This document shows positions 359 through 27,158 of a stretch of DNA of 45,029 nt, one piece after another. Each line of letters begins with the position of its first letter. Position 1 is the first letter of the stretch. The notes beneath the pieces are model-generated. The model had not been told where the DNA came from, ran no database searches, and worked only from the letters and a program-made list of their open reading frames with translations. The DNA lies in NCBI GenBank assembly GCA_964576115.1, contig CAZNUA010000030.1:1-45029 (forward strand), in the 5' to 3' direction. The position numbers and the translations under genes were made by a program. The DNA comes from an uncultured Gemmatimonadota bacterium. Lineage in GTDB: Bacteria; Blakebacterota; Blakebacteria; Blakebacterales; Blakebacteraceae.

Positions 359-1660
359 TCAGGGTTCCCGCAACATTCCTACCATGGTGACATCGTCGTC
401 GAAGGGGCGATCGCCGGCCCAGCTGCGCACCTCGACCTGCACCTCGTGCAGGATCGAACGCAGGGGCATGCCGACGGTGTTGCGCAGGATCGTTTCGAGG
501 GCTTCCTCACCCATCAGATCCTCGTCATCGTTCATGACCTCGGTCACCCCGTCGGTGAACATGAAGAGCAGGTCGCCTTTCTCGAAGGCCACCGTGGCCG
601 AACCGTACGGAGCCGAAGCCATCATCCCGTAGGGGATGCCCCCCTCCTTGAGTTCGACCAGATCTTCGCCGGCCGAGCCCGCGGCCCGCACCAGGTAGGG
701 AGGGTTGTGACCGGCGTTGACGTACTCGAAGGTGCCGGTCACCGGATCGAGCAGGCCGCAGAAGCCGGTGATGTACTGCATCACGTCGGTCGAGCGGTGG
801 ATGAAGTCGTTCACCCGGCCGATCATCTCGGGCAGATCGCATTCGTAGATGGTATGGCTGCGCAGGGCGGCGTAGAGGTTGGCCATCAGCAGGGCCGCCG
901 GAACGCCGTGACCGACCACGTCGGCGATCGAGATACACCAGCGTCCGTCGTCGAGGGGAATGAAGTCGTAGGCATCGCCCCCCACGGCCTCGCAGGGAAT
1001 GCACTCGGCCGACAGATCCCAGCCCTCGATTTCGGGGGGATCGGTGGGCAGGAGCCGCTTCTGGATGCTTCCCGCCACCTCGAGCTCTTTCTCCATGGCC
1101 TGCTTGGCGAGCGATTCCTGCAGGAGGTACGCGTTCTCGATAGCAATCGCGGCATGGGCCGAAAGAGCGTCGAGGAAGGCGACATCCTCGTCGGTGAAAG
1201 AACCGTCCTGTTTGTTCAGAAGCTGGAAAACACCGATGATATCGCCGGTCTTGTTCCGCATCGGGGTGGTCAGAAGCGATTTGGTGCGGTACCCGCTGGC
1301 GCGGTCGACCTCCTGGTTGAAACGGGGGTCGGCGTAGGCGTCATCGAGGATGATGACGTCGCCGGTCTGGGCTACAAAACCCGAAAGGCCCTGCCCCAGC
1401 GGCATGCGAATCTCAAGTTTCTCCTCCCCCTGCAGGACCTTCGACCAGATTTCGCCGGCCGCTGTGTCGACCAGGAAGATCGTGCCCCGGTCGGCCCCGG
1501 TGTTTTCGGTGGCGGTCTGCAGGATGCGGGGCAGGACCTCGTCGAGTTCAAGGGTCGAATTGATCGTCTGGGAAGCCTCGATGAGCGAGGAGAGCTGGGT
1601 GATCTTCTCCTGGGCGGCCTGCAGATTCTCGGGCGTTTTCTGTTTCTGAGGTGGGCTCAT
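359..1660 (-). CDS. GAF domain + PP2C/SpoIIE (RsbU-like) phosphatase
   Basis: GAF motifs (ADRGTIFL, DAYADPRFNQEVD, QLLNK), coiled linker, PP2C motifs VGGDAYD, ADVVGHG, FTDGVTE, DDDVT. ATG at 1660 (MSPPQ) avoids overlap with tsaE. Confidence 0.9.
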   Translation of the reverse strand: MSPPQKQKTPENLQAAQEKITQLSSLIEASQTINSTLELDEVLPRILQTATENTGADRGTIFLVDTAAGEIWSKVLQGEEKLEIRMPLGQGLSGFVAQTGDVIILDDAYADPRFNQEVDRASGYRTKSLLTTPMRNKTGDIIGVFQLLNKQDGSFTDEDVAFLDALSAHAAIAIENAYLLQESLAKQAMEKELEVAGSIQKRLLPTDPPEIEGWDLSAECIPCEAVGGDAYDFIPLDDGRWCISIADVVGHGVPAALLMANLYAALRSHTIYECDLPEMIGRVNDFIHRSTDVMQYITGFCGLLDPVTGTFEYVNAGHNPPYLVRAAGSAGEDLVELKEGGIPYGMMASAPYGSATVAFEKGDLLFMFTDGVTEVMNDDEDLMGEEALETILRNTVGMPLRSILHEVQVEVRSWAGDRPFDDDVTMVGMLREP

Positions 1661-1673
1661 GACGTCCCCGTCG

Positions 1674-2111
1674 TCACTCCCTGCGACGAACAGCGGGCGG
1701 GCCCTCTGACACCGTGAGGTGTCGGCCGCCCTGTTCCGCATAGTCGAGTGTAACCGTGATGGTGTCTTCGGGCAGCAGTTCCGCCACCCGGTCGGCCCAC
1801 TCTATCAGGGTGATTCCGCCGGTGTCCAGCCACTCGTCGAAACCCAGGGCGAGGAACTCGGCCGGACCCTGGACCCGATAGAGATCGAGATGACAGATCG
1901 GCAGGCTGCCCCGATAAAACTGCATCCGCACGAAGCTGGGCGAGGTCACCTCATCCTCTACGCCCAGTTCTTCGGCCACAGCTTTGATGAAACTGGTCTT
2001 TCCCGCCCCGAGGGGGCCGACGAGGGCGACGACCGCTCCGGGCCCGAGTCCGGCTGCAAGCCGCCGTCCGGCGGCCGCTGTGGCGTCAGGATCGGGAAGA
2101 TGCCCGGTCAA
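1674..2111 (-). CDS. tsaE: t6A biosynthesis ATPase TsaE
   Basis: GPLGAGKT P-loop, VTSPSF, HLDLYRV, IEWA motifs; TTG start directly after the upstream stop. Confidence 0.95.
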   Translation of the reverse strand: MTGHLPDPDATAAAGRRLAAGLGPGAVVALVGPLGAGKTSFIKAVAEELGVEDEVTSPSFVRMQFYRGSLPICHLDLYRVQGPAEFLALGFDEWLDTGGITLIEWADRVAELLPEDTITVTLDYAEQGGRHLTVSEGPPAVRRRE

Positions 2112-2714
2112 TCAGGCCCCCGGAGTGAGGATGGTCTCCAGGATGGTGGTGATGGCGGTACGATATTCTTCTGCGTCAGCGAATCCCCGGGCGATATGAC
2201 GCACGATGCCCTCTTTGTCGATCACGATCGTGCGGGGCAGGGAATTCACGCCGTAGCGCTTGCCGATCTCCCGGAAGGGATCCATCAGCACGGTGCGGTC
2301 CGACAGGTCGTGGTCGACCATCCACTGCGCCGCGGCGGCATCGGTGTCGCCGAAATTGACGAAGAAGAGTATGACCTCACGCTCGGCGTAGGCCTCGGCG
2401 ATCTCGGCCAGTACCGGGGCTTCTTCGGCGCACGGTTTGCACCAGGTGGCATAGAAAGACAGGATGACCGTTTTGGGCGTGTCGCCCCTGAAGACCGCCT
2501 GCTGTCGCAGTTCTCCCACCAGATCGCTGAGAAAGACGTACTCGGTGGTGCCCATCTGCTTCATCACGAACGTCGGGGCCTCCATCCCCACCGCCAGGGA
2601 GTCCACTTCGAAGCCGGTGACCTCCTGGGCCCGGGCGCCGGCCGGCAGGACCAGCAGACAGAGAGCCGCGAGCAGTGTGGTTGCAGTCGATCTGTAAAGC
2701 ATGATGTCTCTCAT
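2112..2714 (-). CDS. Exported TlpA-family thiol-disulfide oxidoreductase
   Basis: Signal peptide (..AGARA-QE), FYATWCKPC, YGVNSLPRTIVID. Start at 2714 or 2702. Confidence 0.85.
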   Translation of the reverse strand: MRDIMLYRSTATTLLAALCLLVLPAGARAQEVTGFEVDSLAVGMEAPTFVMKQMGTTEYVFLSDLVGELRQQAVFRGDTPKTVILSFYATWCKPCAEEAPVLAEIAEAYAEREVILFFVNFGDTDAAAAQWMVDHDLSDRTVLMDPFREIGKRYGVNSLPRTIVIDKEGIVRHIARGFADAEEYRTAITTILETILTPGA

Positions 2715-2731
2715 CCCACCCGTGGTTGCGT

Positions 2732-3586
2732 TCAGTTTCTTTGCGGCGGATCGGGACGGGTCGGCGGGGCGCTGATCCGGTCGGGCCCCGATTCTCCCCC
2801 ACCTCCACTCAGAGCAAGATAGCCCCCGCCACCGACCGCACCCAGCAGCAGTAACCACAACCAGCCGTTGCGGCGGCGGGGCCGCTGCTGCTCGCCCGTT
2901 TCGCCGGTTTCGACCGGTTCGGTCGGCTGCTGCTCGGGCTCGGCCTGCCGGCGGGTCGGATCCTGGGCGGGATCCTGGACCGGGGCCGGCTCGGCCGGCT
3001 CGACCGCCTGGCCGGTGACGTTGGAGGCCAACTCGTTGGCGACCTCCCGGGTGGCTTCGGTCAGCACGTACTCGATGCCTCGCGGCTCATCGTTGAAGGA
3101 GGTGTGCTCGATCCGCGAGGTGGTGATGTCGATGATCCTGATCTGCAGACTGTAGAGGGTGCCCACCTTCGAGACACTGCCCGCCACCATCTTGCTGGCC
3201 CCCAGGACCCGTCCGACCTGCACCACGCATTCGTCGGTGTCGCAGGCCCCGGAGAACTGAAAGCCCATCTCCTCCATGATGTTCTCCATCTGGTTGCGCT
3301 CGATCACCTCGAAGACGCCGGTGCGTCCGAGCCAGATACGCAGCCGCCCGGTGATTGTGCGGGCTTCGGTGTCATCGACGCCCTCGGCGTCGAGATCGAG
3401 CACACCGATGGTGAGCTTCTCCTGCTCCTGGACCTGCAGCGGTTGGTACGTCCGGGTGTCATCCATTGCCCCTGCCGTCACCGTGGCCGCTTCAGCCAGG
3501 GCCGGTCCGACCGAAAGCAGGACCATCTGGCAGGCCACGGCCAGCGCCGTACAACGCATCCAGCCGTGCAGGGGGCGGACGTTCAT
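2732..3586 (-). CDS. Exported CsgG/HfaB/FlgO-like domain protein with Pro/Gln linker and C-terminal hydrophobic Gly-rich segment
   Basis: Signal peptide; TIGVLDL..GV, FEVIERNQMENIMEE, GACDTDEC, GRVLGASKMVAGSV; ATG 3586 overlaps the upstream stop (ATGA). Confidence 0.7.
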   Translation of the reverse strand: MNVRPLHGWMRCTALAVACQMVLLSVGPALAEAATVTAGAMDDTRTYQPLQVQEQEKLTIGVLDLDAEGVDDTEARTITGRLRIWLGRTGVFEVIERNQMENIMEEMGFQFSGACDTDECVVQVGRVLGASKMVAGSVSKVGTLYSLQIRIIDITTSRIEHTSFNDEPRGIEYVLTEATREVANELASNVTGQAVEPAEPAPVQDPAQDPTRRQAEPEQQPTEPVETGETGEQQRPRRRNGWLWLLLLGAVGGGGYLALSGGGGESGPDRISAPPTRPDPPQRN

Positions 3587-4389
3587 CTCTGCCTCCTCCT
3601 CTTCGCAGTTCCAGGCGGCAGGGCGGGCTGCGGCTGCGGCGGCGGGGTCCGGGCGATCTCGCGGTCGCGCTCCTGGTTCCACTGTACCCAGTCGAGGCGG
3701 GCGTCGGCCTCGGGATCGAACTCCGATTTGACCGGAGTCAGGCCCCGGGTCACGACCAGCTGTTCGTTGGCCGAGACCAGTTCGAGCCACTGCTGGGGCG
3801 AGACCTCGCGCGGGGGGGCGATCTCGCGGGGAGCGTCGACCTCACGCAGGGCGCCGCTGCCGGGGGGCGGAGCCGGATTGTCACGCACCTCCATCTGCCC
3901 CTCGTACACCCGCAGGACGGTCGTGCTGTCACTGGGAATGTCGATCCGGAAGACGGTGCCCCGCACCGCCGCCAGCACGGTCGGGGTCTCGATGGTCAGG
4001 TTTTCACGGTCGGCGGCCATGCGACGCACGTTGGTCCACAGGCGCCCCCGTCGGGCCGTGGCCCGGGTACCCGGTCCCTTCCAGTCCTGCAGGCTGCGGG
4101 TGCTGATTTCCAGCTCCGAGTTCTCGTCGATGCGCACCACCAGGCCTTCGTCGCTGGTCTTGAGCTCGAGCCGCGATTCGGCACCGGTGCGCACCGCGTC
4201 GCCGGCGAAAAGGGACTGCTGCAGGACAATATCGGACCATTCCTCGGACTGCGCCTTTTTGTAGCCCACCTCGCCCAGGAAAAAATTGACCTTGGCCAGC
4301 ACCCAGGCCTGGGCGCTCACCAGTCCGGTCAGCATCACGGCCAGAGCGCCCGCCAGAAGCAGGGAGCGGATACCGTGCGGGCTCCTCAT
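3583..4389 (-). CDS. Exported FecR-domain protein
   Basis: Signal peptide; GDAVRTGAESRLEL, VRIDENSEL, IETPTVLAAVRGTVF, LRVYEGQMEV. ATG 4389 has an ATGA overlap with the upstream gene. Confidence 0.85.
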   Translation of the reverse strand: MRSPHGIRSLLLAGALAVMLTGLVSAQAWVLAKVNFFLGEVGYKKAQSEEWSDIVLQQSLFAGDAVRTGAESRLELKTSDEGLVVRIDENSELEISTRSLQDWKGPGTRATARRGRLWTNVRRMAADRENLTIETPTVLAAVRGTVFRIDIPSDSTTVLRVYEGQMEVRDNPAPPPGSGALREVDAPREIAPPREVSPQQWLELVSANEQLVVTRGLTPVKSEFDPEADARLDWVQWNQERDREIARTPPPQPQPALPPGTAKRRRQR

Positions 4390-5600
4390 CGGCCGCCCCC
4401 CTTCGGGGTCACCCTGATCTGCACCTGGTTGGCGGTCATCCCGGTGATGGCGATCTCGAATTCCTCCCACTCTTTCGAGGCCAGTTCGGTGGCCAGGTCC
4501 ATGGCCGTGCCGGTGAACTGCACCTCGAGAATCGTCAGCCCCTCGGTGAAGCTCTTCTGGACCACGCTCTGGGCGCCGCGTACGTAATAGGGCACGAGTC
4601 GGATGAAGCGCTGCACGTTCATGAAGTCGAGGCCGTTGACGATGTGCAGTTCGACCCTGGTGCCGCTCGTGACTTCCTCGTTCCAGCGCTCGAGGATACG
4701 CTCTTCCAGGCGCGGCATGATCTTGTTCATGGTTCGTTCGATACCGCGGTGGGTACCATCGATTGGACTGAGCCCGATACCGGCTTCCTGGTCCTGGGTC
4801 GTGGTCATGATCTCGCCGGTGTCGGCCCGGATGACCCGGATCGCGATCGAGACCTGCATGCTGATCATATTGCCCAGCTGCTGCATTTCATTGGTATTGC
4901 GCCGGGCCACGGTCGTGCCGAGCACAACCACTTCGGCCTGGAAGGCCCGCCCGATCTGTGCCGCCTGAGCCATGTCACCCTCCAGGGCCGACGTCAGCAC
5001 CGCCCGCTCGGTGTTCATGGCCACCGTGGCAGGATCGACAAAGCGGAAGCCCTTGGGCTGCAGGACCTCCATGAAGGCGGTGGCGGTGGTGGCGTTGTCG
5101 ATGGTGGTGGGAACCCGCTCCTCGCCCCCCTCGTCGACGAAGATCTGCTCGTCGATCAGGACCAGCATGCGGGGGAAGCTCATCCGCTCCATGAGAACCC
5201 CGATCGCCTGGAGATCTCCGACCAGTTCCGATTCCTTGACCACCGCCCGCACCTGGACGGTGATCATGTCGGGATCTTCGGTCGTCGAGAGAACCTCGTA
5301 AGAGGAGATGTACCCCTCGGTGCGGGTGTAGATGCGATCCTGGATCATCATGAAGTTCTCGGTCAGGGAGCTCGAGTTCACGTGCGTTCCCATGACCTGT
5401 TCGACCGCATTGCGCAACGCGTCGTTCACCGCATCTTCTTCAGCTTTGACCTTGTCGCCGGCGATGATCGAGCCGCGTCCCTGAACGGTCACGGTCACCC
5501 CCTCCTGGGGAACGTCCTGCGCCCGGAGAGTTCCGGGGAGAAGGAGACCCAGCACCGCCGCTGCGGCCACGGCGGATGCCAGCCGTTTGTGAGCAGACAC
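4386..5600 (-). CDS. Exported FlgT N-terminal-domain protein (FlgT-like)
   Basis: Signal peptide; KAEEDAVNDALRNAVEQVMGTHVNSSSL...RTEGYISSYEVL...VQVRAVV resembles FlgT_N; CsgG-like middle domain; GTG start overlaps the upstream TAG. Confidence 0.7.
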   Translation of the reverse strand: MSAHKRLASAVAAAAVLGLLLPGTLRAQDVPQEGVTVTVQGRGSIIAGDKVKAEEDAVNDALRNAVEQVMGTHVNSSSLTENFMMIQDRIYTRTEGYISSYEVLSTTEDPDMITVQVRAVVKESELVGDLQAIGVLMERMSFPRMLVLIDEQIFVDEGGEERVPTTIDNATTATAFMEVLQPKGFRFVDPATVAMNTERAVLTSALEGDMAQAAQIGRAFQAEVVVLGTTVARRNTNEMQQLGNMISMQVSIAIRVIRADTGEIMTTTQDQEAGIGLSPIDGTHRGIERTMNKIMPRLEERILERWNEEVTSGTRVELHIVNGLDFMNVQRFIRLVPYYVRGAQSVVQKSFTEGLTILEVQFTGTAMDLATELASKEWEEFEIAITGMTANQVQIRVTPKGGGR

Positions 5601-6718
5601 TATCGCAGCGCTCCCTTCAGGTTGCGGATGATCAGAATCGCCTCGTGCCCCGGCAGGGTGCCCTCGAGGAAGAAGGTGCCGTCGGGTTTGCCGTCCATGA
5701 TGCCGCGGGTGGTAGCCAGCATGATGGCATTGAAGGCATAGTGGGTGTTGGGCACGTCGGCGAAAGGACTCGGGGAACCGAAGAAACGTGATTTCAGCCC
5801 CGGGTCCTCCCAGGCCTCGACCAGGACCCGCTGTATCAGGTTGGCCAGCTCGACCCGGCTGACCACCTGGTTGGGCCGGAAGGTGTTGTCGGGAAACAGA
5901 TCCATCGCGCCCGTGATGACTGCTTCCTCAATGTGCTGGCGGGCCCAGTGATCGAGGGCATCGATCGGCTGCGGGATGTGGCCGATTTCGGGATTGGCCT
6001 GCCCCGGCGGGACGAAGCGACGTTCCTGCGGGGCCTCGGGACCGATGAAGATGTCGTGGAGGTCGAGTTCCTCGTTCAGGAGAACCGCCAGTTCGGCCCG
6101 GCTCAGAGCCTGGCTCAGGGCGATCTCACGGTAGCGCTCGGGCACTCCCAGGGTAGCCCGCTGCAGCTCGCTGACCCGCTGCCAGCCGTCGTTGAGAGCC
6201 ACATTGTCGGGCAGGGCGTTGATCCCGCGCCGGTAGGCATCGACGGCGGCATCGAAATCGCGCAGGATGACGTGCACCTGACCCAGCTCGTCGTAGGCGT
6301 CGGCGTAGCGCGGGTCGATCTCGATGGCGTCCTCGAAGGCCCGGATAGCCCGGTTGTGCCGTCCCTGTCCGACGTAGGCTTTGCCCAGGCCGACGTGAGC
6401 GGGCACGTAGTTCCGGTCCTTGCCGAGCGAGCGCTGGAATTCGCGCTCGGCCGAGTCGAAGTCGCCCTCTTCCAGATCGCAGAGACCCAGCCCTTCGTAG
6501 CCGGGGGCGAAATCGCGGTCGAGCCCGAGAGCGTACTCGAATTCGGCCCGGGCCTCGGCCACCTTGTCCTGATCGAGGAAGGCCTTGCCGGCCTGGTAGT
6601 GCGCCTCGGGGGTATCGAGGACCGATTGCTGTCTGATACGGCCGGCGCACGCACCGAGCACCGCCGCCGCCAGCAGAATGACCGCCCCGGCGCTGCAGAT
6701 TCTCGTGATCGGCTTCAT
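5600..6718 (-). CDS. Lipoprotein with TPR repeats and C-terminal SLH domains
   Basis: Lipobox VLGA-C; about 4 TPRs; SLH motifs DHWARQHI..GAMDLFPDNTFRPNQVVSRVE and FADVPNTHYAFNAI..RGIMDGKPDGTF. Confidence 0.85.
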   Translation of the reverse strand: MKPITRICSAGAVILLAAAVLGACAGRIRQQSVLDTPEAHYQAGKAFLDQDKVAEARAEFEYALGLDRDFAPGYEGLGLCDLEEGDFDSAEREFQRSLGKDRNYVPAHVGLGKAYVGQGRHNRAIRAFEDAIEIDPRYADAYDELGQVHVILRDFDAAVDAYRRGINALPDNVALNDGWQRVSELQRATLGVPERYREIALSQALSRAELAVLLNEELDLHDIFIGPEAPQERRFVPPGQANPEIGHIPQPIDALDHWARQHIEEAVITGAMDLFPDNTFRPNQVVSRVELANLIQRVLVEAWEDPGLKSRFFGSPSPFADVPNTHYAFNAIMLATTRGIMDGKPDGTFFLEGTLPGHEAILIIRNLKGALR

Positions 6719-6748
6719 TTCACCGTTCCTCCTTCGCGAACTCCGGGT

Positions 6749-7594
6749 TCAGTCGCCGGCACCGAGAACGATCATGACCCGGCATTCTTCCAGGAAGGGC
6801 ACGTTCCCGGCCGCCTGCCGGATACGGGCCGCATCGTCGCTGGAGATGATCAGGTCGCAACCGTTGGCACCGGTGGTACGCAGGGCCCTCACGACGAGAG
6901 GATTGCCGGCCACCCGTTCGTTCTCGCGGGCCTGCCCCACATCGTTGTGGTACCCCACGACCCCCTGTTGCAGGGCGTACTGCCGCATCACCTCGGACGT
7001 GCCGTACACCTCGGTGCCCTCTTCATCGATGATCTTGGGCGCCATGGCCGGGGTCACGTCGAGCCCCGAGGCGTCGACGATCAGCCCCGAGACCGCCCCG
7101 CTCGAACGGGGAGCCGGGTTCGGCGTGGCGACCTCCCCCGTCCGGCCTCCCCGATCGCCGGGCAGGAGCACGTCGTAGAGCGCCCCGGTCAGAGGCATCT
7201 CGACGATGATTCCCACATCCATGGCCTCGAAGTATTTCACGTCGAGCACGGTGAAGTCCGTGACCGTCCCCTCGACGCGGGAACGGATGATGTCGCTGGT
7301 GAGCATGGCGTTTTCCACCGTGGTGGTGGAGGTCACCGCCACTCCCTTGACCGCTTCGAGCAGATCGCGGTAGGCGGCCTGGCGGGCCGCCCGCACCGCC
7401 GAGGTCCGCCAGGCGGGGCGGGGGAAGTCGGTGTTCGGCGCGCCGAGACTGTGCACAATGACGACCTGGCGCTCCCAGTCGATCGTAAAGGCACCGGGTT
7501 CGGGCCAGTTCTCCTCCTGAGCCTCGGCCCCCGCGAGGGGAACCAGCAACGCTCCGGTCAGCAGGAGCGCGAGATACGGACGCAACGGCTTCAT
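6749..7594 (-). CDS. Exported LPP20/FlgP-like domain protein
   Basis: Signal peptide; IDWE..V.SLGA, AVRAARQAAYRDLLEAVKGVAVTSTTTVEN; C-domain SGLIVDASGL..PAMAPKIIDEEGTEVYG. ATG 7594 preceded by GGAGG. Confidence 0.7.
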   Translation of the reverse strand: MKPLRPYLALLLTGALLVPLAGAEAQEENWPEPGAFTIDWERQVVIVHSLGAPNTDFPRPAWRTSAVRAARQAAYRDLLEAVKGVAVTSTTTVENAMLTSDIIRSRVEGTVTDFTVLDVKYFEAMDVGIIVEMPLTGALYDVLLPGDRGGRTGEVATPNPAPRSSGAVSGLIVDASGLDVTPAMAPKIIDEEGTEVYGTSEVMRQYALQQGVVGYHNDVGQARENERVAGNPLVVRALRTTGANGCDLIISSDDAARIRQAAGNVPFLEECRVMIVLGAGD

Positions 7595-7664
7595 GCCGTC
7601 CTCCTTGGCTTCTGTCTGCGCCGGACCGGGTTCCTCGCTCCCGCTCCGGAACACAGGACACATA

Positions 7665-9854
7665 TTACTTCGTTGTCATGGTCCAGACCCCGTCCCACTC
7701 CTCACCCGGCGGCTGCTCTTTCAAGGTGCGGCAACGGTCGCTGAACACCGCTGCGGCCGGATCGTCGGTGAGCCGGGCGAAGATTTCAAGAGCCTGGTCC
7801 CACGCCTGGGCCCGGTAATACTGTAGGCCGTCGGCGAAGGCATCGGCAAGGCGGTGAGCCTCGGGGGTGTCGTGGTCCGATCCGGTCCGGCCCAGCACCT
7901 CGTAGATCACCACCGGTTTTTCTTTGCCTTTGACCCTCACGCTGTCGAGTTCACGCACCAGAAAAGCGTCGCCCACAGCGTCGAGGGTCGCTTCGGAAAT
8001 CAACAGGCTGACCCCGTACTGCCGGGTCAGGGCTTCGAGCCGGGCGGCCAGGTTGACGTTGTCGCCCAGCACGGTGTAGTCGAACCGCATATCGCTGCCC
8101 ATGTTGCCCACCACCACCGGACCGGTGTTCAGGCCCAGCTTCAGGTCGAACGTCCCGGGCAGGAAATCCCCCCATTCCTCGCGCACCCGCTCGAGTTCCT
8201 CGCGCATGCCCAGGGCTGCCCCCACCCCCCGTTCGGCGTGATCGTCGAAGGCCAGCGGAGCGCCGAAAATGGCCATGACCGCATCCCCGATGTACTTGTC
8301 GACCGTACCCTGATACTCGAAGATCCGCCGGGTCATGGAGGTCAGGAACTTGTTCAGGAAAGCGGTCAGCTCCTCGGGATCGAGCTTTTCGGAAAAGGAG
8401 GTGAAGCCCTGGATGTCGGCGAAGAGAATGGTCAGCTCGCGCCGCTCCCCGCCGAGCCGGAGTTTGTCGGGATCGTCGAGCATCTCGTCCACCACCGCCG
8501 GCGAGACGTACTGCTGGAAGGCCCCCTTGATGACCCGCTTCTGCTTCTCTTCGGTCATATAGCGGTAGACCATGGCGCTGGTGTAGCCCACCACCAGGCC
8601 GAAGGCGGGCCGGAAGAGTTCGGACCAGTACGAGACGCGCAGATAGATATAGAAGGCGGCGATGAAGAAAAGGACGAAGAGCACGGCGGTCAGGATCGCT
8701 CCCAGTGAAATGCGGAAGCGGAAGGCGAAAAACGCCACCAGGGCCCCGAGCAGGACGGTCAGCAGGATGCCCAGCCATTCGGGCATCCGTCCCACCTGAT
8801 CGCCCATGAAGAGGTTGGCCAGCAGGGTGGTGTGGATTTTCACCCCGGCGAGGGCGGGATCGACCGGTGTGGGTTTGATGTCCCCCAGGGCCGCCGCGGT
8901 CGGTCCCACGATGCAGATCTTGCCCTGGAAGTACTCGGCGGGCAGTCGCTGGGCGAAGACATCGGAATACGAGATTTCCCGGTAAGGCGGGTAGTCGTTG
9001 GGATACCAGTGGAGCAGAAACCGCCCCAGGTTATCGACCGGTATGGCGTAATCGCCCACATGCAGAGCCACCCCCGGCTCGAAACGCACCTCGTCGAAGT
9101 TGATCCCCATCAGGTCGAGGAAGAGGTGGAAAGAGGCGGTGGGGAGCACGTAGCCGTGATTGCGCCACAGCAGCGGCTGGCGCCGTACGATCCCGTCCTC
9201 GTCGGGAAAGGCGTTCACCAGCCCCAGCCCCAGACTGGAGCGGATGAGCCGCTCGCCCGGTCCTTCGAGGATCTGCCGCCGCAGACCGCTCATGTCGGGC
9301 AGAGCCTCGGCGCCGGCGATGTTCTCGACCGGCACGATCGAGCGGGGAGCGTTGCGGATGAAGACATCCTCATCCACCGTGGACATGAAGACATAACTCG
9401 AGGAATCGATCAGGCTCAGGGCGGTGTAGACCACCCCGGCCTGTCCGAATCCCCGGGCGACCTCGAGGTCCATGGCCGGATCGATGTCCTCCTGGAAAAA
9501 GACGATATCGAAAAAGATCGCCGCCGCCCCGGCCTCGGCCAGATAATCGGCCAGGTAGGAGTGCACGCTGCGCGGCCACTGCTCGAAACGTCCCATCTCC
9601 TCGAGCGAACGGTCGTCGATCCGGATCAGGACAATCCCGGTTTCCTCGCCCTCATACGGGTCGGTCTGCGCCGCGGCCAGCCAGACCCGGGAGTCGAAAA
9701 GGGAGTACTCGATCTTCTGAAACGACCCGGGCGCGATGATATAGGTGAAGAGCGCCACCAGCAGCGCCGCTCCGCCGCCGACCCCCAGAGCCTTGAGGAT
9801 CGTCCAGCGGGCCGCCGTGCCGCCCGTTCGTTCGTTGTCGTTCCCGTTTGCCAT
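7665..9854 (-). CDS. CHASE2-domain class III adenylate cyclase
   Basis: CHASE2 (IDDRSL..G..QWPR, AIFFDIVF, DEDGIVRR, GVKIH), 3 TM helices, cyclase motifs FADIQGFT, DKYIGD, DYTVLGDNVNLAARLE, and C-terminal TPR-like tail WDGVWTMTTK. Confidence 0.95.
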   Translation of the reverse strand: MANGNDNERTGGTAARWTILKALGVGGGAALLVALFTYIIAPGSFQKIEYSLFDSRVWLAAAQTDPYEGEETGIVLIRIDDRSLEEMGRFEQWPRSVHSYLADYLAEAGAAAIFFDIVFFQEDIDPAMDLEVARGFGQAGVVYTALSLIDSSSYVFMSTVDEDVFIRNAPRSIVPVENIAGAEALPDMSGLRRQILEGPGERLIRSSLGLGLVNAFPDEDGIVRRQPLLWRNHGYVLPTASFHLFLDLMGINFDEVRFEPGVALHVGDYAIPVDNLGRFLLHWYPNDYPPYREISYSDVFAQRLPAEYFQGKICIVGPTAAALGDIKPTPVDPALAGVKIHTTLLANLFMGDQVGRMPEWLGILLTVLLGALVAFFAFRFRISLGAILTAVLFVLFFIAAFYIYLRVSYWSELFRPAFGLVVGYTSAMVYRYMTEEKQKRVIKGAFQQYVSPAVVDEMLDDPDKLRLGGERRELTILFADIQGFTSFSEKLDPEELTAFLNKFLTSMTRRIFEYQGTVDKYIGDAVMAIFGAPLAFDDHAERGVGAALGMREELERVREEWGDFLPGTFDLKLGLNTGPVVVGNMGSDMRFDYTVLGDNVNLAARLEALTRQYGVSLLISEATLDAVGDAFLVRELDSVRVKGKEKPVVIYEVLGRTGSDHDTPEAHRLADAFADGLQYYRAQAWDQALEIFARLTDDPAAAVFSDRCRTLKEQPPGEEWDGVWTMTTK

Positions 9855-9911: not shown

Positions 9912-12900
9912 TTACCGTACCAGGGTCATCTTGCGGATGCGCACTTCGGTACCGGCCTGCAATCGGGCCAGGTAGATACCGCTGGCCACCGCCCGGCCAT
10001 GACGATCGGTGCCGTTCCAGCTCAGGGTGTGGGTACCGGCTTCGAAGCTCCGGTCGGCGATGACCGTCACAAGCTGGCCGCGCACGTTCCTGATCTCGAG
10101 CCGTACCTCTCCGGCTTCGCGCAGGGCGAAGCGGAGGGTGGTGACGGGATTGAATGGATTGGGGTAGTTCGGGTGCAGCTCGACCCGCGCGGGGAGCCGT
10201 TCCAGCCCCGCCGTCATGCCCGCGAGCCAACCCGGTGTTCCGACCAGCAGGCGCAGCTCGCGCCGCACCACCTGGCCGAGCGAAACCGCGGCGTTCCGCA
10301 CCGGGTAGAACCGGTAGGGAGCACGCCCTTCACAATCGATGCGCAGACCGGCGGCAGGATCCACGAGCACGGCCTCATAACCGTCAGGCAGGGCCTCGAT
10401 CCCGCTCACCGTCAGGCTCGCTCGCCGCTGACCCGAAATCGATTCGACCATCAGCGGCCAGGTATAGCCTTCGCCCACTCCGGGCACGTAATCGGTGGCA
10501 TAGGTCCCCGGATCGCTCGAGCGTTCGAGCCGGTTCACCGCCAGCCGGGCGGTACCGTCGATCGACATCGGCGGGTCGGGATAGTCCCCGGGATCCCACT
10601 CGATCTCCGATCCGGCCCGCACGCCGATATAGTTCTGATCGTCGACCGCAGCCGAGCCCTCCTGCGAGAGTAACAGCTGCAGGCGCCAGCCGTCGAAGAC
10701 CTCATCGGCGCCCCGGGACGCTTCACCCGCAAGAGCGGCACTGGCATCCACCGGCGGTATCTGGAGCGTCAGGCTACCCGAGGTACGGTTGTAGACCGAC
10801 ACCCCCCGCCAGACCGGCACGTCCTGTCCGACCGCCGGCAACCCCCAATCGCTGCCGTTGTAGGTGTAGACCCCCGCGACCTGCGTGCCGGTCAGGCCTG
10901 AAGCGGTCAGAATCTCTCCCCAGTCCACATCGAAGAGCCAGGGGGAACCGATGTCGTTCCAGCCCGGATTCAGGGTGATCTGGAAGGGATTGCCGGTATC
11001 GATCGTTTCACCCGTACCGATTTCGAAATGCACCCCGCTGCTGCGGTGGTGCAGCCAGTATGCCCGGCCGGTTTCCAGGTTGGCCCCGCTGACCTCCTGG
11101 TAGCCGCCGTTGTTCCAGCGGAAGAAGCGCCAGACCGTATCGTCGTACTCACCCACCCCGGTCAGAATGTCCTGGATGTAGCTGTTGTCGGGGTAGTGCG
11201 GCACCGAGACCATGAGCCAGCCCTCGGGGGGGATGTTGCCCGAGGCGGGCAGGCCGGTGAAGCCCATCTGCACCCCGCCCGACACCCCCTCGCCGACGGT
11301 CCCGTCGGAGGTGGCCCGGTTCTCGTTCCCGGCCATATCGCGGGCGACGACCAGGTACTGGAAGCCGTCGTAGCCCGCCGCCCAGGCGGGAACGTCGCCG
11401 CTGTAGCCGTCCCCGCCGGTGGAGCTCATGGTCATATGGTTCCAGTCGGTGGTGCCGGTGGGACGGTAGAGAAGCCGAACCCACTCCAGCTGCATGTTGT
11501 CTGTCGCGGTGGCGTCCACGGTCGCGGTGGTGTTGTACAGGGGACTTCCCAGAGGATCGACCGTGAGGCCGGGAGTGGTCGTGTCGACCTTGAAGGCCCA
11601 GGTGTTTGACCAGTCGGAGGTGAAGAAGCCGTCCGAGGCCTGAACCCGCCAGAAGTACTCTCCATCGGCCTCATAAGGGCTCGCCATTCCCAGGTCGAGC
11701 TGGGCCGTGGTCCCGTACTCGGTCCAGCTGTTCACGATATCGGTTGGATCGAAGTTCGCGGTAACCGCGACCTCGATGTCGTACTCGGTGGCGTCGGCGA
11801 CCGACTGCCACGCGAAATCGACCGTGCTTGTATTCAGCCAGCTGTTATCGGCAGGACCGGAGAGCACCGGGGTCGAGAGGGTGGTCAGGGAATACATGAC
11901 CGAGTACGTGGAAAAGCCCGTCAGGGAAGCCAGGATCTCATCGTCGGCGGCATTCACGGTGGCGCTGATCTGCTCCCACTGGAAATTCGAATCGTTGTAA
12001 CGCCAGAGAGTCAGGTTGTCTTCGGGGTAGCTGCCGGGCAGGCCGGCCGGATCGTAATGCACGTTGAACTCGACCGGAGCGTTGAAATCGCCGGCCGCCA
12101 GCGGCGTGGCCGACCAGAAGAGCTGCCCGAAGAGATCGTAGGCCACGAAATGTTCGTACCCCGAAGGCGGGGCCGGCACCTGGGTGTTGATGTCGAGCGA
12201 GAAAATTTCCAGCTCCACGGCTTCGTCGAAGGTGAAGGGATCGATATAGAGCCAGGTGCCGTTATCGACCAGGGCGTAGACAAACTGTTCGACGGTCTCG
12301 TCGATCAGGGTCGGACCGCCCCATACGTGGATCGGGCCGGCCCGGCCCCACCGGCCGCCGTCGTCGTAGACGTAGAGCCAGGTCGTCCCGGCCGCCAGGG
12401 CGGAGAGCTGCCCGGTAGCATTCACCGTGGCGATCTCGCGGTCGTCGACGGGGTGATGATCGACCCAGTAGTAGTACGAGCCCACCCCGCCCGAGGGGGT
12501 GTACTGGAGCTGATCTCCGACCGGCAGGTACTCCTCACCTGCGGGGGAGAGACCGAGGAAGAGATCGGCGGGGGTTTCGTAGATCGAGAGCAGGTAGGTG
12601 TCGCTGGCCGCGAACCAGTCCGTGCCCGGGGTCACCTGCCGGGTGAAGCCGGCGCTGGCCACCCCGGTTTCTTCGTAGACCGCGGTCGGATCGTCCCAGT
12701 TCAGGATCCGGACGCCCCAGTACCCGTCGGCCAGCATGGCGTTGGTCTCGAAAGGCGTGAGCATCATGTAGTCGCCGCCGGCGACGGCCCAGCTGCCCAG
12801 CCAGGTGTACGAACCGGTGGAGATGTCGTAGGCATCGATCTGAGCGTTGGTGTCGGTCACCCAGAGGTTGCCGTCGTCGTCGGCCGCCACCCGGTTGGAC

Positions 12901-14750
12901 TGGCTGAACGCGGGGGGAACCGTGAAGGCCAGTGAGGGCGAACCGGGGGTGAAGATATCCCAGACATCGACCCCATCTTCGTCGTTGGCCACCGCCAGCT
13001 GGTCCCAGTCCTCGACGTAGGTCAGGTCGGTGGACCCGACCGTGCCCGCCCCTGAATAGGCAATGGTATTCACGAGCCAGGCCGAAGCGGGATCGGAGAC
13101 GTTGATGATCATGAGCCCGCCCAGACCGGCCGTGGCGTAGAGGTACTCGTATTCCCCCGGACCGGCGGTTTTCAGTTCCAGGTGTTCGACCAGGCGGTCT
13201 GTCGGCGGAGCGATGGAACCGTAGTCGGTGAAGGAGTTGCCGGACTCGTCATAGGTCAGCACCGTGACCCCTGCGGTGCTCTCGGCGACATAGATCCAGG
13301 GCCAGTCGACAGACAGGTCCTTGACCCAGCCGTCACTCACGTACCTGTTGATCACAAGCGGAGCCGAGGGGGCGCTGACATCGAGCACGGTGAGACCGGT
13401 ATGGCCATTGGCCACGAAGAGCAGGTCGCCCCGCCGGTGGGTCATGTAGACCCGTCCCGATTCTCCCGCGCGGGCCAGTTCGGTCAGAGGCGTACCGGCA
13501 TCCAGCAGGGAGAACTGCGAGGTCCCGCCTAAGAGCTCGGCGACCAGCAGGCTGCGGCCGGTGGGTGCCACCGCCAGACCGTTGGGGGTGAACTTGCCGG
13601 TCGTCGAGCCGACGAAGCTCGGCGTCGTGCCGCTGGTGATATTGGTGATGTCGATCGCGACCGGATTGAGACCGCCGAAGGCTACATAAGCCTGGTTTTC
13701 GAACAGCTCGACATCCCAGACACCGCTGCTGTTCCCCGTCAGGTGTACCTCCTGCGGAGCTCCGCCCAGGGTGTGGGTACTCGCATTCCAAGTGTAGAAA
13801 TCCACCGTGAGTTCGTACCCGGCCGTGCCCGGATCAGTCATCAGGCCGCCGAAGCAGAGGATGTCGGCCGAGTGAAAGGCGCCCCCGGGCAGGAAATCGA
13901 CCTGGACGTAGTTGCGGTCGCCGGGGTTGTAGTCGTCATACCACAGGGGATTGGAGGGCGTGGTGACATTCAGGACCTCGAACCCGAGAGCCGCCACGGT
14001 GATGAAGGCATAGCCGTTCGATACGGCGACATCGACACTGCGGCTGCCCCCCAGATAGGTATTCAGCGGGGAGGGGGAAGAGGGAGTGCTGACATCGACG
14101 ATCTCGATCCCGAGCGTACTCCGGGCCAGGTAGATGACGTTGTTCTCGGCCGCAATGTTCAGGATCCGGCCGGAGACCGCCGGTTCGTATTCCCCGAGCA
14201 GGCTGGGAGAACCGGGATTGGAGATGTCGAAGATGAAGACCCGGGTTTCGTGCCAGTCCACGACATAGAGGCGGGTGCCCTCCACCTCCAGCCGGTAGGT
14301 CCCCAGGTCGGTATACCAGGTGTAGTAGGGCAGGGGACTGCCGGTGCTCAGGTTATAAAACACGAGCCCCGGTTCGACGGCGGCCACGGCATAGTCGGTG
14401 CCGCCGCTGGTGAAGGTGGCGATATCGTAGTACCCGGTCCAGAGAGTGAAGGAGAGGGAGGTCGGGAAGGAGGAGGCGGAAGATCGCGAGAAACCGGCGG
14501 GATCGGACCGACCAGCCGGAACGGGCAGATCGAAATCGCGCTTGAAATCGGGCAGATCGGCGTCGGGGATCCGGGTCAGATCGCCGATTCCGGAAAGAGG
14601 TGGAACAGACCCGATCCTGACTGCCCGGGTTGCGGCCCGGATCGGGTCGGCGGCCTGGGCCAGGGTCGGAGCCGACTGGATCAAGAGGATGGTCGCCACG
14701 GCGGCGCTGACCGTGAGCGCACACCCGCCTGCCCGCATCGTTCTGCTCAT
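9912..14750 (-). CDS. 1612-aa secreted multidomain protein: LVIVD-type beta-propeller repeats, Big_2, ZU5-like, FN3/Ig domains, FlgD-Ig/T9SS-like CTD
   Basis: Signal peptide; repeats such as IFDISNPGSP, IVDVSTPSSP, VLDVSAPSAP, IINVSDPASA; IATVNATGQLSALAAGTT; EYFWRVQA; C-terminal NYPNPFNP...VASGIYLARL...RKMTLVR. Confidence 0.85.
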   Translation of the reverse strand: MSRTMRAGGCALTVSAAVATILLIQSAPTLAQAADPIRAATRAVRIGSVPPLSGIGDLTRIPDADLPDFKRDFDLPVPAGRSDPAGFSRSSASSFPTSLSFTLWTGYYDIATFTSGGTDYAVAAVEPGLVFYNLSTGSPLPYYTWYTDLGTYRLEVEGTRLYVVDWHETRVFIFDISNPGSPSLLGEYEPAVSGRILNIAAENNVIYLARSTLGIEIVDVSTPSSPSPLNTYLGGSRSVDVAVSNGYAFITVAALGFEVLNVTTPSNPLWYDDYNPGDRNYVQVDFLPGGAFHSADILCFGGLMTDPGTAGYELTVDFYTWNASTHTLGGAPQEVHLTGNSSGVWDVELFENQAYVAFGGLNPVAIDITNITSGTTPSFVGSTTGKFTPNGLAVAPTGRSLLVAELLGGTSQFSLLDAGTPLTELARAGESGRVYMTHRRGDLLFVANGHTGLTVLDVSAPSAPLVINRYVSDGWVKDLSVDWPWIYVAESTAGVTVLTYDESGNSFTDYGSIAPPTDRLVEHLELKTAGPGEYEYLYATAGLGGLMIINVSDPASAWLVNTIAYSGAGTVGSTDLTYVEDWDQLAVANDEDGVDVWDIFTPGSPSLAFTVPPAFSQSNRVAADDDGNLWVTDTNAQIDAYDISTGSYTWLGSWAVAGGDYMMLTPFETNAMLADGYWGVRILNWDDPTAVYEETGVASAGFTRQVTPGTDWFAASDTYLLSIYETPADLFLGLSPAGEEYLPVGDQLQYTPSGGVGSYYYWVDHHPVDDREIATVNATGQLSALAAGTTWLYVYDDGGRWGRAGPIHVWGGPTLIDETVEQFVYALVDNGTWLYIDPFTFDEAVELEIFSLDINTQVPAPPSGYEHFVAYDLFGQLFWSATPLAAGDFNAPVEFNVHYDPAGLPGSYPEDNLTLWRYNDSNFQWEQISATVNAADDEILASLTGFSTYSVMYSLTTLSTPVLSGPADNSWLNTSTVDFAWQSVADATEYDIEVAVTANFDPTDIVNSWTEYGTTAQLDLGMASPYEADGEYFWRVQASDGFFTSDWSNTWAFKVDTTTPGLTVDPLGSPLYNTTATVDATATDNMQLEWVRLLYRPTGTTDWNHMTMSSTGGDGYSGDVPAWAAGYDGFQYLVVARDMAGNENRATSDGTVGEGVSGGVQMGFTGLPASGNIPPEGWLMVSVPHYPDNSYIQDILTGVGEYDDTVWRFFRWNNGGYQEVSGANLETGRAYWLHHRSSGVHFEIGTGETIDTGNPFQITLNPGWNDIGSPWLFDVDWGEILTASGLTGTQVAGVYTYNGSDWGLPAVGQDVPVWRGVSVYNRTSGSLTLQIPPVDASAALAGEASRGADEVFDGWRLQLLLSQEGSAAVDDQNYIGVRAGSEIEWDPGDYPDPPMSIDGTARLAVNRLERSSDPGTYATDYVPGVGEGYTWPLMVESISGQRRASLTVSGIEALPDGYEAVLVDPAAGLRIDCEGRAPYRFYPVRNAAVSLGQVVRRELRLLVGTPGWLAGMTAGLERLPARVELHPNYPNPFNPVTTLRFALREAGEVRLEIRNVRGQLVTVIADRSFEAGTHTLSWNGTDRHGRAVASGIYLARLQAGTEVRIRKMTLVR

Positions 14751-14818: not shown

Positions 14819-16504
14819 CTAAGGGGTGCCGGAGAGCGGCGTCAACCGGATGAGGGGAACGACCATTTCAGCCAGGGAAACACCGCCATGCTGGAAAGAA
14901 CCGGCCCAACGCCGTTTGTGATCGCCCCGATCGCCGGCGAAGATCAGGAAAGCGTCCTCGCGGGCCAGCAGGCAGGTGTCGGTGAGCCGGCCGGGGGGCA
15001 GACGCCAGGCCGCCGGATCGTCGATGCGGTGTGTCCAGCGGGGATCGGCGTTCAGGTTCCGCCCGATCTTGTACCGCACCCCGCTGGTGGCGGTGCGATC
15101 GGCCCTGACCTCGACCGGGCGGGCCACTCTCGTACTGCCGTGATCGGTCGCAATCACGACCGGCGTGCCCTGCTCGAGCAGATGCCCGATCAGGCGGGGA
15201 AAGGGAGAGTGCCGGAACCACTCCCGGGACAGAGCCCGGAACGCGCCTTCGTCGGGCGCAAGTTCCTGAACCACCGTCGATTCGGCATGGTCGTGCACCA
15301 GCAGATCAAGAAAACTGACCACGATCACCGCCAGCCCCTCGGGAGCTCCCGCGTCGAGCCGGCGCACCACCGCGTCGGACTCGCGGGGTGAACGAACCCG
15401 CTCAAACAGCGCCAGGGAACTTCCTTTCCGGCTCCCTGAACCGGTCTGTTCGAGTGCTTCGGCGAGCAGCTGCGGTTCATAACGGTTGGGACTTTTCGTC
15501 TCTGCTGCATCCTCGCCGGTCAGCCCGGGGAATGAGGCGGCGATTTCATCGGGATAGCGCCCCGAGAACAGGGCGTTACGCGAATAGGGTGAGGCCGAGG
15601 GAAGCAGCGAGAAGAGCGAGCTGCGTTCCAGGTGCGCCCGGGAGGCCAGGAGAGGTTCTATGGCCAGCCACTGATCGTAGCGCAGGCAATCGAGAACGAG
15701 CAGAACGGCTCGTCCGGCATGGGCCAGGGTCGGCCGGAGCACCGCCCCGGGTAGATCGACGGTCAGACCGGGCCGGTCGCCGCGGCCGGCCGGCTGGACG
15801 GGCAGGGCCGGCAGGCTGCCCGCGCCGGCGGCGGTACCGGCGCTTGCCGCCCCAAGGGCTCGCAGGCGCTCTATCCACGACCCCGCTTCAGCGACCCAGT
15901 CCGGATAGGCTTCGAGCACCTGCCGGGCGAAGACCGAGTCGGCCTCGCGCTGAAGCGAAGCGAGCGATTCCGCCAGTCCCTCCTGGCCGGTTTCATCGAG
16001 CCGGAGGCTCCACCAGGCCAGGGCTTCAGCCAGATCTCCCCATTCGGCCGGAGTCAGGGGGGCTCCGGAGAGACGGTTCGTAATCCGGGTGAACTCCCCG
16101 GTGTAATCGCGTGCCAGGGTCTCATCCCTGATCCGCTCGCGTTCGAGCAGGCGCTTGCAGACCGAGAGAACCTGACTCGGATTGACCGGCTTGGTCAGAA
16201 AATCGGCGATCGAGCGGCCGATCGCCTCCTCCATGAGGCCTTCGTCCTCCTGTTTGGTGATCATGACCACCGGCAGGTCGGGCCGGATACCTTCCAGCCG
16301 CTCGAGCACGGTCAGACCGTCGACCCCCGGCATGCGTTCGTCGAGCAGGAGCAGATCGAAGGATTCGACCGTACAGAGGGCAAGCGCATCCTCGCCGCTG
16401 GAGGCCCGTACGACCGTGTACCCCCGCTCTTCGAGGTACAGAATGTGCGGGGTGAGCAATTCGATCTCGTCGTCGACCCAGAGAATGCGGTAGCGGCCCG
16501 CCAC
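14819..16504 (-). CDS. porX: PorX-like response regulator (REC + PglZ/alkaline-phosphatase-fold domain)
   Basis: REC ILWVDDE/LLDERMPG/MITK/LTKP; PglZ DCLRYDQW, YSRNALFSG, FLDLLVH, ATDHG, FQHGGVS. Confidence 0.85.
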   Translation of the reverse strand: MAGRYRILWVDDEIELLTPHILYLEERGYTVVRASSGEDALALCTVESFDLLLLDERMPGVDGLTVLERLEGIRPDLPVVMITKQEDEGLMEEAIGRSIADFLTKPVNPSQVLSVCKRLLERERIRDETLARDYTGEFTRITNRLSGAPLTPAEWGDLAEALAWWSLRLDETGQEGLAESLASLQREADSVFARQVLEAYPDWVAEAGSWIERLRALGAASAGTAAGAGSLPALPVQPAGRGDRPGLTVDLPGAVLRPTLAHAGRAVLLVLDCLRYDQWLAIEPLLASRAHLERSSLFSLLPSASPYSRNALFSGRYPDEIAASFPGLTGEDAAETKSPNRYEPQLLAEALEQTGSGSRKGSSLALFERVRSPRESDAVVRRLDAGAPEGLAVIVVSFLDLLVHDHAESTVVQELAPDEGAFRALSREWFRHSPFPRLIGHLLEQGTPVVIATDHGSTRVARPVEVRADRTATSGVRYKIGRNLNADPRWTHRIDDPAAWRLPPGRLTDTCLLAREDAFLIFAGDRGDHKRRWAGSFQHGGVSLAEMVVPLIRLTPLSGTP

Positions 16505-18129: not shown

Positions 18130-18252
18130 ACCCGGCCGGCTTCCTCTGCCCTGGCAGCATGCATGCTGGCATGATAGGGGGTCGGGCCCGGCGGCGCACG
18201 GCCGAAGCGCGACCGGGTTGCGTCACAGCACCGCAGAACGTTTCTTCTCGTG

Positions 18253-26972: not shown

Positions 26973-27158
26973 GACGAACTGCGCGGAGGCGTACTGATGG
27001 TACGCCGCACAAGCGCGAGGATTGCGGTCGATCACCAGAGCAGCGGATTCTCCGTCAGATCAAGGAAGCCGACGAGACAGGCGGAGGCGTAGTTTCTCTA
27101 CGCCGCACAACTGTCGAGGATGGCTGACGCTGAGATGGCGGAGAAGACGCGCTCTGGT
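26973..27158 (+). repeat. Two copies of a structured hairpin motif; the second is nested in a ~125-nt irregular stem-loop
   Basis: GACGA-N5-GCGGAGGCGTA-S-N5-S-TACGCCGCACAA-N4/5-GAGGA at 26973-27021 and 27071-27120. Outer stems 27034-41/27151-58 and 27048-57/27136-45. Confidence 0.75.

Follow-up and report, generated by a model that had tools for sequence, protein, structure and literature searches.

A CHASE2 adenylate cyclase associated with a FlgT/LPP20-type envelope module in an uncultured Gemmatimonadota bacterium

The environmental factors sensed by CHASE2 domains are stated as not known in a paper on Burkholderia (PMC5192318). A worked case of CHASE2 input is that of Sinorhizobium meliloti, where the CHASE2 cyclases CyaD1, CyaD2 and CyaK are activated through the outer-membrane protein NsrA in the Clr pathway (PMC13001267). 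A Campylobacterota cluster, described in PMC9239204, encodes a CHASE2 adenylate cyclase together with a cyclic AMP (cAMP) phosphodiesterase, a FecR-domain protein of the outer membrane and a TPR protein, and the "BiofilmReg" operon of Burkholderia (PMC5192318) encodes a response regulator, a LysM-FecR protein and a CHASE2 histidine kinase. Clusters of CsgG, CsgF, CsgA/B, FecR and an adenylate cyclase have been reported in Alphaproteobacteria and pelagiphages (PMC9599517), in a paper that makes no mention of CHASE. Here, we analyze a cluster of seven genes at positions 2112 to 9854 of a 45,029-nucleotide (nt) stretch of DNA from an uncultured Gemmatimonadota bacterium (contig CAZNUA010000030.1; the whole stretch is called the window), in which a CHASE2 adenylate cyclase adjoins genes for exported relatives of flagellar ring proteins. 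Judged from genome comparisons, the association of this cyclase with an envelope module is real and conserved, and to call the module a cAMP system would be too narrow, as it is older and more widespread.

The cluster consists of the following genes, in the order in which they are read:

7665..9854, minus strand: CHASE2-sensor class III adenylate cyclase, 729 amino acids (aa), by Pfam, hydrophobicity and CyaB alignment
6749..7594, minus strand: LPP20/FlgP-like protein of two domains, exported, with 281 aa when counted from the MKPL start (the open reading frame, ORF, is open to 7663)
5600..6718, minus strand: lipoprotein with TPR and two SLH domains, 372 aa, LGAC lipobox; Pfam TPR families, SLH 2e-14 (two stretches)
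4386..5600, minus strand: exported FlgT-like three-domain protein, 404 aa; Pfam FlgT_N 1.6e-7, above the cut-off
3583..4389, minus strand: periplasmic FecR-domain protein, 268 aa; Pfam FecR 4e-12, FecR domain at residues 64-165
2732..3586, minus strand: protein of 284 aa that has an LpoB/CsgG-N-like domain, a linker of low complexity and, at the C-terminus, a hydrophobic tail rich in Gly
2112..2714, minus strand: exported TlpA-like thioredoxin with a WCKPC motif; Pfam AhpC-TSA 5e-18, Redoxin

An earlier note, made from the letters of the window alone, had described these genes as seven co-oriented neighbors with three overlapping junctions, and all of its coordinates and junctions were found again: the seven minus-strand ORFs are present and co-oriented, and the overlaps read TAGTG at 5600, ATGA at 4386-4389 and ATGA at 3583-3586 on the minus strand. 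The remaining intergenic gaps are 70, 30 and 17 nt, with the starts chosen as backed by relatives. The note called every product a membrane or exported protein; an N-terminal hydrophobic segment is present in all six non-cyclase products, and the cyclase has transmembrane (TM) segments.

The locus shares with the Campylobacterota cluster the joint encoding of a CHASE2 cyclase, a FecR protein and a TPR protein with no extracytoplasmic function (ECF) sigma factor. It differs in that a phosphodiesterase domain is found by Pfam in none of its seven products, that it adds the FlgT-like, LPP20-like and LpoB/CsgG-N-like proteins, and that its TPR protein bears SLH domains. With BiofilmReg it has in common a periplasmic FecR-domain protein encoded beside a CHASE2 sensor, but the output there is a histidine kinase, the locus here is without LysM, and BiofilmReg is without the FlgT/LPP20 module. 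The S. meliloti pathway offers the likeness of CHASE2 cyclases activated through an outer-membrane-associated partner, so that cAMP is reached by a route across the envelope. That partner is a β-barrel, whereas the candidates here are soluble or lipid-anchored proteins of ring type; no barrel-like gene lies in the window cluster, and the one barrel-like gene noted, of 725 aa, stands with the genome's other cyclase. The likeness to the H-ring of Vibrio (FlgT, FlgP and FlgO; Protein Data Bank, PDB, 3w1e and 8z5n) lies in the three-domain fold of FlgT (E 7e-11), that to the basal disk of Campylobacter (FlgP; 9hmf) in the LPP20/FlgP-like fold, and that to both in the CsgG/FlgO/FlgT_C-type partners of related loci. 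In contrast to these flagellar structures, the module is found here with no flagellin or FliF detected, and it has FecR and TPR-SLH components, plus the cyclase at this locus. The periplasmic FecR domain (PF04773) also recalls FecA-FecR-FecI, but the window FecR protein has neither a cytoplasmic anti-sigma domain nor an internal TM segment. A Pfam scan of 41 ORFs of the window found, as the earlier note had observed, no ECF sigma factor and no TonB-dependent transducer; the sole sigma factor in the window (27158-28015) has regions 1.2 to 4. Therefore, the locus is not a Fec-type cell-surface signaling system.

The earlier note knew of no description of this combination, which holds in part. 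Clusters with CHASE2 and FecR, one of them with TPR, and clusters with CsgG, FecR and a cyclase are in print. A full-text search, with most subscription journals outside its coverage, found no literature pairing CHASE2 with FlgT, LPP20 or CsgG. For LPP20, FecR and CsgG together, the pelagiphage paper (PMC9599517) was the only relevant match, and no description of the module was found. The new element is the association of a CHASE2 cyclase with the FlgT/LPP20 module.

The breadth of the module was surveyed by scanning an alignment of the FlgT-like protein against one genome per species. This gave 80 loci, in metagenome-assembled genomes (MAGs) labeled Calditrichota, Zixibacteria, Edwardsbacteria, UBP2, Syntrophales, Myxococcaceae, Acidobacteriota and others; no cultured carrier was identified among them. 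Hidden Markov models (HMMs) were built and iterated from the window proteins and scored on all ORFs of the loci, 72 of which lie outside the phylum of the window; a flank-controlled subset comprises 52 of these, in which each side of the locus extends for 3 kb or more. The genes were found as follows:

LPP20-like: 56 of 72 outside loci; 40 of 52 with flanks
FecR: 53 of 72 outside loci; 38 of 52 with flanks
CsgG-family: 44 of 72 outside loci; 34 of 52 with flanks
TPR-SLH: 29 of 72 outside loci; 19 of 52 with flanks
cyclase: 4 of 72 outside loci; 3 of 52 with flanks
TlpA: 2 of 72 outside loci; 1 of 52 with flanks

The usual order in Calditrichota-labeled MAGs is lpp20, tpr-slh, flgT, csgG, fecR. 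The gene order of the window cluster fits loci of this type, and the HMM scores are high for all five module genes; the Myxococcaceae loci read lpp20, flgT, fecR. All-against-all clustering of the ORFs of the loci revealed no additional widely conserved neighbor. By this comparison, the five genes for the LPP20-like, TPR-SLH, FlgT-like, FecR and CsgG-family proteins are a pre-existing and widespread module, normally without a cyclase. The cluster, put forward in the earlier note as a candidate trans-envelope cAMP signaling system, is not a dedicated one, as five of the seven genes belong to a module that usually lacks a cyclase. Since most copies of the module do without one, its primary role is not cAMP signaling. 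Nor is the module flagellar in this bacterium, given that flagellin (PF00669) and FliF (PF01514) have no match in its genome, which is 93.7% complete, with positive controls in four flagellated model genomes. Flagellar genes are also absent among the Pfam-scanned neighbors of seven other loci.

In 14 loci, a small PilZ-domain gene and a small conserved ORF lie directly upstream of lpp20-flgT-fecR (L077, L078, L085, L087, L090-L093 and L095-L100; mostly Myxococcaceae, the rest labeled delta proteobacterium or Myxococcota). The PilZ match (Pfam 7e-11 in L096, 8664-9008) links the module to a cyclic di-GMP receptor as well.

The four cyclase-bearing outside loci are all labeled Acidobacteriota and have the order lpp20-cyc-flgT-csgG, with a CsgG that carries FlgT_C; the successive junctions are 7-nt, overlapping and 33-nt. 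In a search of the whole acidobacterial class, comprising 30 species, a FlgT-like gene was present in 24 species and a CHASE2 gene in 25. Of the 24 FlgT-positive genomes, 22 have the two genes as neighbors on one contig and strand, with CHASE2 immediately upstream; 21 of these 22 have no other CHASE2 match, G028 having a second, partial one. As for the two exceptions, one has both genes fragmented on separate contigs and the other has no CHASE2 match. The CHASE2 regions of the acidobacterial cyclases are 20-21% identical to that of the window cyclase, and in a FastTree phylogeny of 78 CHASE2 regions, they are not sister to it.

The acidobacterial clusters differ from the window in gene order and in having no FecR gene. 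Pfam finds no FecR domain in them, and hhalign assigns a probability of 0.4 for one in the LPP20-like protein; FecR genes in the four acidobacterial genomes lie on other contigs, none of the four near the module. The acidobacterial LPP20-like protein is a full-length homologue (hhalign E 3e-51). What the two versions with a cyclase share as partners is an LPP20-like, a FlgT-like and a CsgG-family protein. We read this distribution as two separate recruitments of the cyclase to the module or one very old one. With either origin, selection keeps the cyclase inside the module in two phyla.

The phylum of the window is a small one in GTDB, of 10 species genomes, and its related MAGs are titled Gemmatimonadota or Zixibacteria at NCBI. 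A FlgT-like gene occurs in eight of the nine other genomes, and all eight loci share, within contig reach, the order cyc, lpp20, tpr-slh, flgT, fecR, (csgG-like), tlpA, tsaE, gaf-pp2c. The CsgG-like gene is missing from three of the eight, all of one genus. The cyclase heads the module in each of the five loci with upstream flank, the other three contigs ending inside lpp20. Since tsaE is equally syntenic, comparison within the phylum cannot separate function from inheritance. The earlier note had proposed a survey of gene neighborhoods, and the genes do co-occur elsewhere, both in the five assessable genomes of the phylum and in the acidobacterial ones.

The window cyclase has a TM segment at residues 17-45, a periplasmic CHASE2 domain at about 46-356, a TM block at 357-410 and then a cytoplasmic catalytic domain; the Pfam matches are CHASE2 at 4e-45 (residues 33-371) and Guanylate_cyc at 2e-25. 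Presumably, the aligned residues have the class III roles of two metal Asp, substrate Lys with Thr/Asp, and transition-state Asn and Arg. The catalytic residues, in the motifs FADIQGFT, DKYIGD and DYTVLGDNVNLAARLE, are identical in CyaB of Pseudomonas aeruginosa (3r5g, E 4e-41). The catalytic site is thus intact, and the enzyme looks active, in agreement with what the earlier note had concluded from the motifs.

The genome has only two class III cyclases, and its only two FecR genes each adjoin one of them. Five genes for cyclic nucleotide-binding proteins are possible cAMP receivers. The second cyclase, a CHASE2 protein as well (752-aa ORF), is on another contig (G000:C10, locus L002 5043-11277, plus strand), where the order is a secreted 379-aa protein, a FecR protein, a 725-aa protein and the cyclase. 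The 725-aa protein has no Pfam match and ends in Phe, being a probable outer-membrane barrel. Some 4 kb upstream is an MscS channel that has a cyclic nucleotide-binding domain, and the order of genes is reminiscent of the NsrA type. The closest paralog of the window CHASE2 (42% identical) is the C-terminal CHASE2 domain of a Ser/Thr protein kinase (G000:C16, locus L001 8864-11038, minus strand), which has no FecR gene nearby.

The domain calls of the earlier note were confirmed by Pfam for CHASE2, TPR-SLH, FlgT-like, FecR and TlpA, whereas the LPP20 match is below the cut-off and that to CsgG is partial. The LPP20/FlgP-like protein has a signal peptide without a lipobox. Its LPP20 match is at 1e-4 and 23 bits, under the 25.9-bit cut-off, which homologues of the protein in other loci exceed (27.5 and 28.4 bits). 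Its AlphaFold2 model has a pLDDT of 78 and matches Tp0624 of Treponema pallidum (5jir) in Foldseek at E 8e-11; one domain matches the motor scaffold of Campylobacter jejuni (9hmf_A) at E 0.011 and TMt 0.65. A search for longer, fused LPP20-like forms, with CHASE2 or FecR, found none, which is weak evidence. The FlgT-like model (pLDDT 73.6) has as its top Foldseek matches the LPHT ring (8z5n) and FlgT of Vibrio (3w1e), each with E 7e-11 across some 410 columns. The TM-scores to both are low (0.26), because the orientation of the domains differs. Its next matches are CsgG, HpaA, GNA1162, PelC, TolB and LpoB.

The TPR-SLH lipoprotein is probably a cell-wall tether. The FecR protein has only an N-terminal signal-like segment (residues 6-34), and it aligns over its full length with the FecR proteins of the module in other phyla; the FecR profile gave only a chance-level match in the PDB (E 0.022). 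"CsgG-like" proved an overstatement for the next gene, which encodes a short LpoB/CsgG-N-like domain with a hydrophobic tail. Pfam matches it to CsgG at 1e-6, over profile positions 44-100 only, that is, 57 of 210, and also to DUF3280, LpoB and TolB_N. A relative has a paralog of 486 aa, with which the protein shares 67% identity. The CsgG of the module elsewhere, examined by Pfam in seven loci, is normally a full-length CsgG (E 2e-39) with FlgT_C and weaker matches to FlgO, LpoB and TolB_N. With the module's CsgG HMM, the window gene scores 182 bits, against 267 bits for a full-length CsgG on another contig of the genome (G000:C1, locus L102 8069-9007, minus strand), which is 39% identical over 318 aa to a Calditrichota module CsgG. 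Its neighbors are unrelated: a pyridoxal phosphate-dependent enzyme (Pfam PALP), an M23 peptidase and hydrogenase genes. By these alignments, it appears to be the module's CsgG ortholog, displaced from the cluster in this phylum, and the window protein, by the same comparison, is neither a pore-type CsgG nor the usual CsgG ortholog of the module.

The thioredoxin is peripheral, and its membership in the cluster, which the earlier note had assumed, is uncertain, as it recurs with the module in just 2 of the 72 outside loci. These sole outside repeats, with the TlpA-like gene directly upstream of the module, are both labeled Zixibacteria (L038 7914-8645 and L040 2447-3139).

We propose that the window holds a composite locus, made of the widespread envelope module and a CHASE2 adenylate cyclase that is coupled to it, and we give this reading a probability of about one half. 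The module, old and non-flagellar, would most likely build a ring- or brace-like scaffold under the outer membrane. In this phylum, the periplasmic CHASE2 domain would have been recruited to read, by contact, the assembly, occupancy or deformation of that scaffold, and the cyclase would convert its state into cAMP, the signal presumably running in this direction. Candidate contacts of CHASE2 are the LPP20-like and FlgT-like proteins, which both lineages share, and FecR, in this lineage only. The pairing in two lineages, a matter of gene content and order, supports a functional link between cyclase and module. A more specific proposal, that the FlgT/FlgP-like scaffold is itself the input of CHASE2 and that CHASE2 is a protein-contact sensor of the assembly or mechanical state of a periplasmic ring attached to the outer membrane, is a tentative one that we hold to be less likely than not. 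A complex prediction for CHASE2 residues 46-356 (78-row alignment) with mature FecR 29-248 (47 rows) returned a score of 0.00, which speaks neither for nor against binding.

Several observations weigh against the composite reading. No cyclase accompanies the module in 68 of the 72 outside loci. Within each lineage the genomes are related to one another, which reduces the 27 cases to about two events, and the deep support of the CHASE2 tree is weak and carries a long-branch warning, so that a single ancient origin with later rearrangement is conceivable. Five other genomes with the module were examined; CHASE2 genes are present in all of them (5/5) but lie far from it. Finally, the synteny within the phylum spans the housekeeping gene tsaE and a GAF-PP2C gene, so adjacency at such depth is weak evidence.

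If the proposal is correct, bacteria in at least two phyla gauge the state of the envelope through a relative of a flagellar ring protein and report it as cAMP, which would show what this widespread but unstudied module does and how CHASE2 sensors in general receive their input. A CHASE2 domain embedded in the module in two distant lineages has a concrete set of candidate partners, and cAMP is a measurable readout for a module that offers few other ways in to its function. It is also a case of flagellar ring protein relatives used outside flagella. A receptor cyclase with periplasmic partners is of an already known kind; the pairing is a lead both to what CHASE2 sensors respond to and to what the module does.

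Could the cyclase and the module be mere neighbors, the module a structural brace and the cyclase a sensor of some unrelated input, held together by a shared transcript or a stable gene order without physical coupling? The usual absence of a cyclase from the module would fit this, as would a co-oriented run that also takes in tsaE, GAF-PP2C and an unrelated upstream LVIVD gene, and the long housekeeping array that makes up the rest of the window. Against it stands the recurrence of the pairing in 22 of 24 genomes of a second phylum, where the genes are ordered differently, the cyclase is a distant one and its gene sits inserted between module genes; we regard this explanation as somewhat unlikely. 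The earlier note suggested that the FecR-domain protein acts as a relay in the periplasm, touching CHASE2 and thereby linking the cyclase to the envelope complex. That both FecR genes of the genome stand beside its two class III cyclases is in its favor, and at the second of these loci, a secreted protein, FecR, the probable 725-aa barrel and a CHASE2 cyclase follow one another. Neighborhoods with CHASE2 and FecR are also described for Campylobacterota (PMC9239204) and Burkholderiales (PMC5192318). The relay is weakened by the acidobacterial clusters, which keep the LPP20-like, FlgT-like and CsgG proteins beside the cyclase and have no FecR domain, the FecR genes being on other contigs (0/4 near). 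Moreover, FecR is a core part of the module in lineages without a cyclase (38 of 52 loci), and just 1 of 13 CHASE2 genes in the five other module genomes is near any FecR gene. The evidence from gene neighborhoods for FecR as a general adaptor is mixed and, on balance, negative, so it is probably not one; a relay through FecR at this locus seems unlikely to us.

The reported company of CsgG, FecR and an adenylate cyclase (PMC9599517) raises the further idea of a secretion apparatus of CsgG type (type VIII-like) under the control of FecR and cAMP, as in the alphaproteobacterial and pelagiphage clusters, and the full-length match of the module CsgG elsewhere to Pfam CsgG would be in line with it. 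At the window itself, however, so little of the CsgG profile is covered (57/210), and the full-length CsgG of the genome is an orphan on another contig. Neither CsgF nor CsgE nor curlin repeats are detected by Pfam in the cluster or at the seven surveyed loci, the rest of the genome not having been searched, and PMC9599517 does not call its cyclase CHASE2-type. We hold such an apparatus to be improbable. The FlgT fold with its FlgT_N domain and the FlgP-like fold would suggest flagellar accessory genes, equivalent to an H-ring or basal disk, were it not for the lack of flagellin and FliF matches in a nearly complete genome (93.7%, controls positive) and of any flagellar gene among the scanned neighbors at seven other loci, which together make this explanation very hard to sustain.

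The borders of the cluster are not marked by spacing. On the downstream side, tsaE adjoins tlpA directly (2111/2112), with the gene for a GAF-SpoIIE phosphatase next in the same tight, co-oriented run, and on the other side, the end of a gene with LVIVD repeats is 57 nt upstream of the cyclase. Since the run passes both borders of 2112..9854, close spacing alone does not delimit the functional unit, and comparison across genomes is needed. A consensus promoter scan gave no signal above shuffled expectation, and a terminator scan found none inside the cluster. Other genes of the window are:

359-1741, minus strand: GAF-SpoIIE (PP2C) phosphatase, syntenic with the cluster across the phylum
9912-14750, minus strand: 1612-aa protein with LVIVD repeats, FlgD_ig and a type IX secretion system (T9SS) sorting tail, by Pfam
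14819-16504, minus strand: response regulator fused to a PglZ domain
18250-20580, plus strand: DUF5916 and CBM9 protein, on the opposite strand within a mostly minus-strand housekeeping array

The phosphatase was considered as a cAMP receiver for its phylum-wide synteny and was dropped, as nothing tested favors cAMP binding; it may act as a downstream regulator. The LVIVD/T9SS gene was set aside as a member of the system, having no match in the relatives' loci with upstream flank. A housekeeping array fills the remainder of the window, with MltG-like, Lgt, MgsA, sigma-70 factor, CdaA, FolP, FtsH and TilS genes among others. No RNA data set is listed as containing the window, whose DNA occurs in sediment, seawater and estuary metagenomes.

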